From a plasmid, in the NCBI RefSeq assembly GCF_054482595.1, contig NZ_JBTHVH010000006.1: DNA of 46,161 bases; one strand, written 5' to 3'. Positions within the stretch are counted from its first letter, which is position 1, and the number at the start of each line of letters is the position of its first letter. A program made the position numbers. Shown here in pieces: positions 43,201-46,161 of this stretch.

Positions 43201-46161
43201 TCGCTATGACGCCATAAACAGGCTGATTGCGAGCGGCAGCTCCTGGAGCCAGATTCAAAAAGTGCTGGGTTGTAGCCGGGCGACTATCAGCAAAGCTGTG
43301 AAGCAACAGACCGTTAACAAAATGAACCATGAACCTGAAGGTAGGGAGTAGTTACAACATAATAAACAGTGTGTTGAAGAATAAAACTGATTCTTTATAC
43401 TGTATATGCATGGGTCTTCCCCGATCATGGTGGGAAGGCTCAGAACGCCATATTCAGCTTTCCGTAGTGGAACATCACCCCCAGTTTAAAGCGCTCCCGG
43501 TTTCGGTATCCCCTGGCTTTTATCCTCAGCAGCCTGATCTTGCTGTTAAGTGCCTCCGCATTTCCGTTTGAGACACTGTGTCGCATCGCATTCAGGATCC
43601 CGTACAGCCTTTTTCCTATCGTTTTCGCGGCATTTTTCATCATGGGAACGTCACTGTTAGCCGCCAGCGCCAACCATCTCTGCCAGTCACTCCGTCTTTC
43701 CTCGCTCCATGGCCTGTTCCAGATATCCTTTGCCAGCTCTTTCAGCGCCCAGCACTGGCTCGTCAGCTTCATCTGTGCACGCAGCCACATCAGCTTTTCC
43801 TGCCGGGATTCGGTCATCCACTTATCGCTGTACTGCCACAGGAAGCGGGTTCCTTTTGCCTGGTGTCGGCTTTCAACAGGGAGGTGCGGATGTTCATTCT
43901 GACGGGTTTTATCAACTACCTCGCCCAGTTGCTTCGCCACATGGAAGCGGTCAAAGGCGATTTTCTCAACCGCACTGGGTAAGTGGATACGCGCTGCTCT
44001 TATATAGCCCGCGTTCATGTCCATTGAGAGCGTTTTGATAGCCAGCAACTGCCCATCAGTGAGCGTGCGAAGATAGCCGGCAAGACTCTCTGTGCCGCGA
44101 TCATCCGTTAAGGCCAGCGCCCGACCATCGCGATCGGAGATCACCGTTATGTAACGATGTCCTTTTTTAAAGGCGACCTCATCCACATTCATATGACGGG
44201 CGGATAATGGCTTTTTTATCCGGGCAAGACCTCGCTTAACTGCCCGGGTCATAATGCCGTCAACCGCATTCCAACTGAGCTTAAGTTGCTTCCTGACAGC
44301 ATCAACGGTGCTGATTTTCAGCCATGAGAGAACGAACGATTCGAATAGCAACGTATACCGGCTTCCGGGGCCAGCCCACGGAACAGGCAACGTCAGGCAG
44401 CCATGCTCCGGACACATAATTCGTGGAACATCGGCTTCAACAATAGTGGTGAACTGGCAGGTATCAAGATGGCGCCATTTACGATGACGGTGATCGTGAA
44501 CAGAACAGGATTTACCGCAGGTCGGACAGGCTAGCCGGGTGTTTTCAGCGATCTCAATAGTGACAGTAACAGAACCGGCATTTTCATCGAGAGAAAGGGA
44601 CTTTACCTGCCACGGATCGGACAGGTTGAGAATATGAGCGTAGAGGGACTTTTCGTCCATGGCGGTGACCTCTGGCGATTAAATACACCATTATCATGCC
44701 TTCAGCCACCACAACAAGGGAAGACCCATATGCATACAGCTATATTGATCGGAGGTTTTTCATGCCTAGACACTATGAAATTGACTCAGCCTGGCGTGCG
44801 AGCATTAAGCGTGAGCCGAACGGTCGTCAGACAGTTACGACAGAAGCCTTTGTCAGCCAGCTTGCGCTGATTAATTTTCACTGGAGTTGTCGCCAAGCAA
44901 ATCAGTGGATTGAAACCTACGTGACCGTTTTTAAAGACATTTCCACTCAGGAAGGAGAGAACCGGACATTCATGCTTTTTAACCCCAACGGAGGCCGTTA
45001 AAAATGGGTTTTCCATCGCCAGCAACCGACTACCAGGAAAACAGGCTGTCACTCGATCAGCACTGTAATACAGGAGCGCCGGGAGTATTCTTTTTTCGAA
45101 GTGATACCTACTCTTTCCGGGAAGGGATAAAGCCTGGTGCGCTGCTCATAGTAGATTTTGGGGGCACGCCCGTTGACGGGTCTTTGGTGCTCTGTGTCCT
45201 GGAACAAGAATTCAGGATCATGCGATTGCGACTACACCCCAAGCGGTGTCTCCAGGAACTCGATAAGCTGGATAACTTCAGGGCTATACCTGATGACGAT
45301 GAGGACGGGTTGGAGGTCAGGGGGGTCATTACGCACATTGTGGCACTGTTGCAAAGTTAGCGATGAGGCAGCCTTTTGTCTTATTCAAAGGCCTTACATT
45401 TCAAAAACTCTGCTTACCAGGCGCATTTCGCCCAGGGGATCACCATAATAAAATGCTGAGGCCTGGCCTTTGCGTAGTGCACGCATCACCTCAATACCTT
45501 TGATGGTGGCGTAAGCCGTCTTCATGGATTTAAATCCCAGCGTGGCGCCGATTATCCGTTTCAGTTTGCCATGATCGCATTCAATCACGTTGTTCCGGTA
45601 CTTAATCTGTCGGTGTTCAACGTCAGACGGGCACCGGCCTTCGCGTTTGAGCAGAGCAAGCGCGCGACCATAGGCGGGCGCTTTATCCGTGTTGATGAAT
45701 CGCGGGATCTGCCACTTCTTCACGTTGTTGAGGATTTTACCCAGAAACCGGTATGCAGCTTTGCTGTTACGACGGGAGGAGAGATAAAAATCGACAGTGC
45801 GGCCCCGGCTGTCGACGGCCCGGTACAGATACGCCCAGCGGCCATTGACCTTCACGTAGGTTTCATCCATGTGCCACGGGCAAAGATCGGAAGGGTTACG
45901 CCAGTACCAGCGCAGCCGTTTTTCCATTTCAGGCGCATAACGCTGAACCCAGCGGTAAATCGTGGAGTGATCGACATTCACTCCGCGTTCAGCCAGCATC
46001 TCCTGCAGCTCACGGTAACTGATGCCGTATTTGCAGTACCAGCGTACGGCCCACAGAATGATGTCACGCTGAAAATGCCGGCCTTTGAATGGGTTCATGT
46101 GCAGCTCCATCAGCAAAAGGGGATGATAAGTTTATCACCACCGACTATTTGCAACAGTGCC

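Follow-up and report, generated by a model that had tools for sequence, protein, structure and literature searches.

ISKox3 in a LexA-type operator of a phage-type HumD operon on an IncX3 plasmid, and evidence for a clade of insertion sequences that targets LexA boxes

Introduction

Why does a transposable element lie in the exact centre of what appears to be the control site of an SOS operon, and what has it done to the genes behind it? The question is raised by a stretch of 46,161 nucleotides, here called the window, from the plasmid contig NZ_JBTHVH010000006.1 (assembly GCF_054482595.1), which its size and its blaNDM-5 gene together identify as the common 46,161-bp NDM-5 plasmid of type IncX3. 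In it, the insertion sequence (IS) ISKox3 stands between a promoter and a two-gene operon, which consists of a gene for a 79-aa protein and a humD-like gene related to umuD. A preliminary description of this DNA had recognised the interrupted box and its promoter. From comparison with other plasmids, viral contigs and chromosomes, we consider it likely, with a probability of roughly 0.87, that ISKox3 split the LexA operator and promoter of a phage-type HumD operon, and that it came to this position as a member of a box-targeting clade and not by chance.

Structure of the insertion site

The locus comprises the following parts.

43374-43401, + strand: sigma-70 promoter of the SOS operon, read directly, with TTGAAG (43374-43379), a 16-nt spacer and TATACT (43396-43401)
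43398-43403: left LexA half-site TACTGT, overlapping the -10, with CTGT at 43400-43403
43404-43411: first copy of the target-site duplication, ATATGCAT, equal to the N8 spacer of the LexA box
43412-44727, - strand: ISKox3, ISL3 family, 1316 bp, with the transposase coding sequence at 43440-44660 (- strand)
44728-44735: second copy of the target-site duplication, ATATGCAT
44736-44741: right LexA half-site ACAGCT, with ACAG at 44736-44739
44751-44755, + strand: Shine-Dalgarno sequence GGAGG, ahead of the ATG at 44762

Read from left to right, the locus is TATACT-GT-ATATGCAT, the IS from its left end GGGTCTTCCCC...GGGAAGACCC to its right end, and ATATGCAT-ACAGCTATATTGATCGGAGGTTTTTC-ATG (44762). 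Direct reading confirmed all coordinates that had been given for the promoter, the half-sites, the duplication, GGAGG and the ATG, and with them the placement of the IS in the exact centre of the box, where it cuts the control region in two. Both promoter hexamers and the left half-site have remained beside a resolvase gene on one side of the IS; on its other side, now 1.3 kb away, are the right half-site, the Shine-Dalgarno sequence and both genes. A repeat finder returned the 8-bp direct repeat (43404-43411 and 44728-44735) as well as an inverted repeat that spans the ends of ISKox3 and continues into the CTGT/ACAG flanks; the terminal inverted repeats of the element are imperfect (17/22; GGGTCTTCCC..TGGTGG). 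Its transposase of 406 aa has the ISL3 zinc ribbon, helix-turn-helix and DDE domains (PF01610 at 1e-55, PF13542, PF14690) and scores 323 bits against the NCBIfam model transpos_ISL3 (NF033550; cut-off 180). RefSeq labels it 'ISL3-like element ISKox3 family transposase' on records 100% identical to the window over the 2442-nt IS-containing region.

A consensus promoter scan independently recovered TTGAAG-16-TATACT at 9/12 matches, as the sole promoter-like site on the + strand within 43250-45050. This promoter is now oriented into the left end of ISKox3, antisense to the transposase gene. The arrangement suggests that ISKox3 transposed into the 8-bp spacer of a LexA operator overlapping the sigma-70 promoter of a two-gene SOS operon, and staggered cuts at the CTGT/N8/ACAG boundaries would duplicate the spacer ATATGCAT.

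The rebuilt site as a LexA operator

Removal of the IS and one copy of the repeat yields the 20-mer TACTGTATATGCATACAGCT, which, as previously proposed, matches the LexA consensus TACTGTATATATATACAGTA at 16/20 positions with both arms exact. In published practice, LexA-binding sites have a heterology index below roughly 12-15. We scored the 20-mer, as the preliminary description had suggested, with a matrix that we reconstructed from 30 E. coli boxes of the literature (Lewis 1994; Fernandez de Henestrosa 2000); PMC8072944 gives heterology index values without the sequences. On this matrix, which to the detriment of our reading is not the published one and matches published values only roughly, the rebuilt site has an approximate index of 3.9, lower than that of recA (5.4) and close to that of sulA (4.1). 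For the left and right junctions as they now stand the values are 19.8 and 21.6, and the lowest approximate value of any 20-mer remaining in the window is not below 11.6. The pattern CTGT-N8-ACAG, of which 0.44 are expected by chance in the 46-kb window, no longer occurs in it, so that ISKox3 took the plasmid's only perfect box.

Because the IS itself selects CTGT-N8-ACAG (see below), such a likeness at an occupied site is no proof of an operator, and proof has to come from orthologues free of the IS. We assembled ten orthologous operons, from a Phytobacter plasmid and from genome or metagenome-assembled genome contigs of Lelliottia, Dryocola, Pantoea, Yokenella and others, whose members of the 79-aa protein family are 56-94% identical to that of the window. 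In all ten, a TTGA -35 is followed after 16-17 nt by a box of the form (T/A)ACTGT-N8-ACAG, which ends about 20 nt upstream of the start codon, the position that had been expected of an SOS-regulated operon. In a MAFFT alignment of the ten upstream regions the mean column identity is 56%, with ACTGT, ACAG and ATG invariant; the overlap of -10 and box is conserved, and the consensus of the ten boxes equals the LexA consensus. On this conservation, the reconstructed site is predicted to be a real LexA operator.

The converse view, that the site is a mere look-alike and that the IS prefers AT-rich palindromes which resemble CTGT-N8-ACAG without operator function, has two observations in its favour. 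Resemblance at occupied sites is expected by construction from an element that selects the motif, and one occupied site, between yoaA and yoaB (CCCTGTTCAAATCAACAGGG), has an atypical spacer and scores 12.5 on the approximate heterology index. This view is nevertheless very improbable, given that the box and its spacing to the -35 and the ATG stay constant among IS-free orthologues that diverge elsewhere, that the downstream gene encodes a HumD/UmuD' homologue, and that other copies occupy the classical operators of sbmC, hokE, dinD, tisB and umuDC.

LexA boxes as the target of ISKox3 and its relatives

The preliminary description had treated the insertion as a chance event, a view that our data do not bear out. 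Viral contigs were scanned with a pattern built from the two IS ends alone, free of any flanking sequence, which gave 105 ends with 92 distinct flanks. ACAG stands at exactly +9 to +12 in 86/92 of these flanks and in none at adjacent offsets (+5 to +8, +10 to +20), and the flank consensus ATATATAT-ACAG-TA equals the right half of the LexA consensus. Residence of ISKox3 in LexA boxes is thus the rule. Among 29 distinct complete copies, the 8-bp duplication is perfect in 26, CTGT is present on the left in 28 and ACAG on the right in 27. The approximate heterology index of 28 rebuilt targets has a median of 3.2, and 26 of them score at most 6.7.

It could be argued that insertions are random and that only those in SOS operators survive selection, the SOS genes being dispensable in laboratory growth and insertions there tolerated. 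This is exceedingly improbable. The ACAG register at +9 to +12 and the identity of duplication and spacer in 26/29 copies are precise to the single nucleotide, which post-insertion selection cannot explain. Targeting as such therefore remains the better account. The first outward gene beside an occupied box is most often the 79-aa/HumD operon (15 contexts), followed by DinI (7) and UmuD/HumD (6), and the IS shows no orientation bias, as 25/50 right ends and 21/40 left ends face such an SOS gene.

Further evidence comes from plasmids. In a Kluyvera orthologue of the operon, the same IS end adjoins a different allele of the same operator (duplication ATGTATAT), and other plasmid matches of ISKox3 extend 14-19 nt past the IS ends. 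Six further plasmid contexts were read:

pKP04VIM: ISKox3, CTGT-ATATGTAT / IS / ATATGTAT-ACAG
Enterobacter plasmid 1, upstream of umuDC: ISKox3, duplication ATATAAAA
Enterobacter plasmid 2, upstream of umuDC, opposite orientation: ISKox3, duplication TTTTACAT
pKOX_R1, upstream of umuD: ISKox3, duplication ATAAATAA
Klebsiella plasmid: ISCfr12, duplication ATATATAT
E. coli plasmid, beside dinI-umuD: ISEc53, duplication ATATACAT

All six have the form CTGT-duplication/IS/duplication-ACAG, and three lie upstream of bona fide umuD or umuDC, in both orientations.

The ISKox3-type clade is present in 1643/5426 complete E. coli genomes, from which eleven chromosomal copies were sampled:

tisB/istR operator: one copy, ISKox3
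hokE operator: one copy, ISKox3
dinD operator: one copy, ISKox3
sbmC operator: three copies, ISKox3 once and ISEc53 twice
yoaA-yoaB intergenic CTGT-N8-ACAG: one copy, ISEc53
inside fimB, unequal flanks, no box: three copies identical to each other, ISEc53
decayed chromosomal copy: one, a 91% variant

The yoaA-yoaB site reads CCCTGT-TCAAATCA-ACAGGG, and its spacer is not AT-rich, which makes the site useful to part readout by the transposase from readout by LexA. ISEc53 (1885 bp) is ISKox3-like and has, ahead of its transposase gene, a passenger gene of the ClbS/DfsB family; the ClbS protein serves in self-protection against colibactin. An ISL3-like insertion in fimB has reportedly been seen in E. 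coli sequence type 131.

Relatives with lower transposase identity were compared in the same way:

Yersinia relative, 73%: four of four chromosomal copies in a box
ISSoEn4 of the Sodalis pierantonius SOPE chromosome, 71%: upstream of uvrD, beside CACTGG-N8, other end degraded
E. coli variant, 71%: box with a 10-bp spacer
Erwinia relative, 67%: CTGT-N8 on the readable side
Providencia relative, 65%: one full box, and one copy with a single arm only
GC-rich metagenome relative, 49%: unrelated flanks

The ISSoEn4 site looks like the LexA box of uvrD. Relatives down to about 65% transposase identity thus lie in such boxes almost everywhere, as do ISKox3, ISCfr12 and ISEc53. Box targeting as a trait of all ISL3 elements was rejected, as the 49% relative from GC-rich metagenomes has unrelated flanks.

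Several copies speak against a box rule without exceptions, namely the decayed ones in pO113 and in an iutA/sit island, the three in fimB, the E. coli variant with its 10-bp spacer and the single-armed Providencia copy. Where the duplications are unequal, in three of the complete copies, recombination between IS copies seems to have taken place.

A 1658-bp scaffold labelled Arthrobacter mobilis contains ISKox3 with a right flank equal to the IncX3 site and a left flank that is another LexA box. Its duplications differ (ATATATAT and ATATGCAT), and two other copies are likewise unequal. The scaffold is probably contamination, with either a recombinant of two IS copies or a chimeric assembly behind it.

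Recognition of the box

We propose that the clade uses the gammaproteobacterial LexA box as its target and would cut it such that the duplication equals the N8 spacer. As the most likely mechanism we infer a transpososome of two-fold symmetry that would read the CTGT/ACAG arms directly, an arrangement which fits the symmetric target, the cuts at the boundaries of arm and spacer and the 8-bp stagger. CTGT is exact in 53/56 target arms of the IS compared to 41/60 arms in E. coli boxes from the literature. These stricter arms, along with the acceptance of a GC-containing spacer, mildly favour direct readout over tethering by LexA.

A second mobile element is informative here. In pM159-1.1, an IncY plasmid, a group II intron (Rfam RF02005, 185 bits, at 2707-2960 of the examined stretch) adjoins the orthologous operator with its 5′ end (GTGCGCC...). 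A scan for this intron 5′ end gave 60 copies in 45 distinct contexts, and in 44/45 a LexA-type box with CAGT or CAGC at its end immediately precedes the intron; both arms are perfect (CTGT-N8-ACAG) in 38 of these boxes, and one arm deviates in the others. Thus a second kind of mobile element seems, from its insertion sites, to home to LexA boxes. A candidate target stretch for pairing with the exon-binding sites EBS1, EBS2 and delta of the intron is ...ATAAAAACAGT. A literature search for group II introns together with LexA and retrohoming found nothing relevant.

Targeting might alternatively be guided or gated by LexA, with the transposase capturing operator-bound LexA, or integrating only once SOS induction clears LexA from the operator. 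To the disadvantage of our preferred mechanism, the sequence data fit LexA-assisted capture as well as direct DNA readout. Target and LexA logos agree at all 20 positions, down to the T/A beyond the arms, and the occupied sites are predicted to be of high affinity by the same median approximate index of 3.2. A role for LexA in guidance is still unlikely, as the arms are more stringent than those of natural LexA sites (the latter from the literature), the site with the atypical spacer is also used, and profiles of Pfam and NCBIfam detected no LexA-like or known LexA-binding domain in the transposase. In addition, the unrelated, RNA-guided group II intron uses the same sequence, which indicates that DNA alone suffices as an address. 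Direct readout of the arms is also preferred to recognition of a hairpin or cruciform, which we rejected as unlikely: many spacers are non-palindromic (ATGAATAG, ATATAAAA), leaving arms of 4-6 bp.

Among known systems, the closest in kind are IS1397 and ISKpn1, which insert into repetitive extragenic palindromic (REP) sequences and bacterial interspersed mosaic elements (BIME) (cf. the title of PMC1525189) and likewise have a short, repeated, palindromic non-coding target with precise register and a fixed duplication. They differ in that the target of ISKox3 is a transcription-factor operator and not REP, that ISKox3 belongs to the ISL3 family and makes an 8-bp duplication, and that each of its insertions would rewire an SOS gene. 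Tn7 inserts at attTn7 via TnsD, and Tn5053/Tn402 are known as 'res hunters'. With these, ISKox3 shares the choice of a conserved, widespread, low-cost site common on mobile DNA; however, they use target-selector proteins or a resolvase-res complex, whereas ISKox3 encodes one transposase, with no sign of an accessory protein.

The two-gene operon

Downstream of the right half-site, the window holds the following features.

44762-45001, + strand: gene for the 79-aa protein, intact; phrog_3893, which assigns no function, called 'DNA polymerase V' in some sources
45004-45360, + strand: humD-like gene, 118-aa product, native to 45341, with the last five codons and the stop from IS26
45342-46161, - strand: IS26, 820 bp, with its transposase open reading frame; it truncates the humD-like gene, and its outer end is the end of the window

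The 79-aa protein is described as winged-helix-like and matched no Pfam or NCBIfam family. Its family occurs in lambdoid-type temperate phages, and nearly all named cluster members are from Enterobacterales. The product of the second gene scores 158.2 bits against the NCBIfam HumD equivalog NF051876 (cut-off 120; model positions 1-115/129), and 70.7 bits against UmuD (NF007621), under the cut-off of 110. Aligned to solved structures of UmuD and UmuD', it starts at Gly25 (query residue 2) and keeps Ser60, with Lys97 replaced by Met. All humD-like orthologues have the N-terminus M-GF(P/V)SPA, with neither a cleavable arm nor a Cys24-Gly25 cleavage site. Orthologues of the HumD family are 125-129 aa long, apart from two shorter variants of 106 and 107 aa, and end in a conserved tail, ...DARxGEFDDxPVM, which is missing from E. 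coli UmuD and which the window copy lost to IS26, about 14 codons being replaced. The HumD score, the start at the Gly25 of the processed form and the C-terminal tail mark the product as a pre-activated analogue of UmuD', of the kind represented by HumD of phage P1, and not as an autoproteolytic UmuD. The gene had earlier been called umuD-like, which is right as to homology; more precisely it encodes a UmuD' homologue of the HumD family, already cut by IS26 before ISKox3 arrived.

HumD is known from phage P1 (McLenigan et al. 1999, J Bacteriol 181:7005, as cited in PMC4713147). The window product resembles it in passing the HumD cut-off and in starting at the Gly25 of UmuD' without a cleavable arm. 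In contrast to P1 humD, the gene stands behind that of the 79-aa protein, is found chiefly in lambdoid-type prophages and on plasmids and, in the window, is without its last 14 or so residues through IS26. A search of phage DNA with the operon gave only four weak partial matches, none of them to P1-type phages. The canonical umuDC operon is similar in its LexA box over the -10 about 20 nt before the first gene, in its S24-fold UmuD homologue and in being hit by the same IS. It differs in that operons of the window type have no umuC and no cleavage site, carry Met for Lys97 and score under the UmuD cut-off. In intact orthologous loci no umuC follows the humD-like gene, the next gene being a RelE/HigA toxin-antitoxin pair or one for a stationary-phase protein.

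Empty site and order of events

The preliminary description had looked to IS-free IncX relatives as a check on the reconstruction. We joined 42900-43411 to 44736-45341, deleting the IS and one repeat copy, and searched with the resulting 1118 nt. This empty site is covered by at least 80% in one piece in 214 plasmid records. All 40 matches listed are 100% identical to the reconstruction over the full 1118 nt, among them pIncX-SHV (NC_019157); in the listed IS-free plasmids ATATGCAT is present as a single copy and TACTGTATATGCATACAGCT is uninterrupted. With the occupied arrangement as query, 658 records were covered by at least 80%, which places the IS at the same site. Since the IS-free relatives have exactly the predicted sequence, the insertion at the IncX3 site is, by this comparison, a single event passed on in the NDM-type IncX3 lineage. 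In pIncX-SHV, which is free of ISKox3, an IS26 family transposase is annotated directly after a 357-nt S24 gene, with the same IS26 junction as in the window. As IS-free plasmids have this junction in common, the insertion of IS26 predates that of ISKox3.

Consequences for expression

The preliminary description held that the operon is probably both uncoupled from LexA and silenced. Neither junction resembles a LexA site, and LexA control of the 79-aa/humD operon is accordingly predicted to be lost through the insertion. The most likely effect on the operon is a strong drop in expression. The promoter, freed from its operator, would constitutively drive transcription into the IS, against the direction of the transposase gene, and within ISKox3 no outward promoter was found at the scan threshold of 9/12; a relaxed threshold gave only candidates of 7-8/12.

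Some points tell against complete silencing. Both the loss of control and the silencing are deduced from sequence, the + strand from 43401 to 44762 contains no predicted intrinsic terminator, and there is a weak outward promoter candidate, GTGACC-18-CATTAT (44665-44694, 8/12). Together, the missing terminator and the weak candidate make low constitutive expression of the operon possible. The operon may then be uncoupled from LexA yet not silenced, with read-through or the IS-borne promoter giving constitutive low-level transcription. We hold this to be possible but doubtful: a 1.35-kb untranslated antisense transcript is, from general knowledge, a likely substrate of Rho-dependent termination, and the outward candidate falls under the scan threshold. 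Strong reduction of expression therefore remains the preferred outcome. With humD already truncated by IS26, the effect of ISKox3 on mutagenesis is probably nil, and only the 79-aa gene could still matter. The insertion was thus probably near-neutral for the plasmid.

Relation to published work and significance

The gene map 'IS26-deltaumuD-ISKox3', found in at least 24 papers on blaNDM IncX3 plasmids, shows this locus on plasmids of this type. The searchable literature, outside of which lie subscription journals and the notes of ISfinder, contains no paper on ISKox3, ISEc53 or ISCfr12 together with LexA or the SOS box, and a search on the target specificity of ISL3 gave nothing relevant. Nine papers of this literature name both ISL3 and LexA; none describes targeting in its title or abstract, nor does the text of PMC2453333. 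We lean towards the view that ISKox3, ISCfr12, ISEc53 and their Enterobacterales relatives form an apparently undescribed LexA-box-homing clade that disconnects umuDC, humD, dinI, sbmC, tisB, hokE and dinD from their control, with the group II intron as a convergent case and LexA gating as a means that may couple transposition to SOS.

The locus, on one of the most widespread carbapenemase plasmids, becomes readable as a LexA-controlled phage-type HumD operon that was struck twice. More generally, a target rule for a very common IS clade predicts new copies in any strong LexA box and would explain the recurrent loss of SOS control at umuDC, dinI, sbmC, tisB and hokE, genes with roles in SOS mutagenesis, in the tolerance of gyrase inhibitors and in the formation of persisters. 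With its one transposase and 16-bp address, the system may further serve as a compact model for how a DDE transposase reads a palindromic target, and possibly as a tool for marking LexA regulons.

Of the remaining sequence, the part from 42500 to 46161 gave no match in an Rfam scan. The carbapenemase gene lies at 2192-3001 (- strand) and is blaNDM-5, with V88L and M154L relative to NDM-1.

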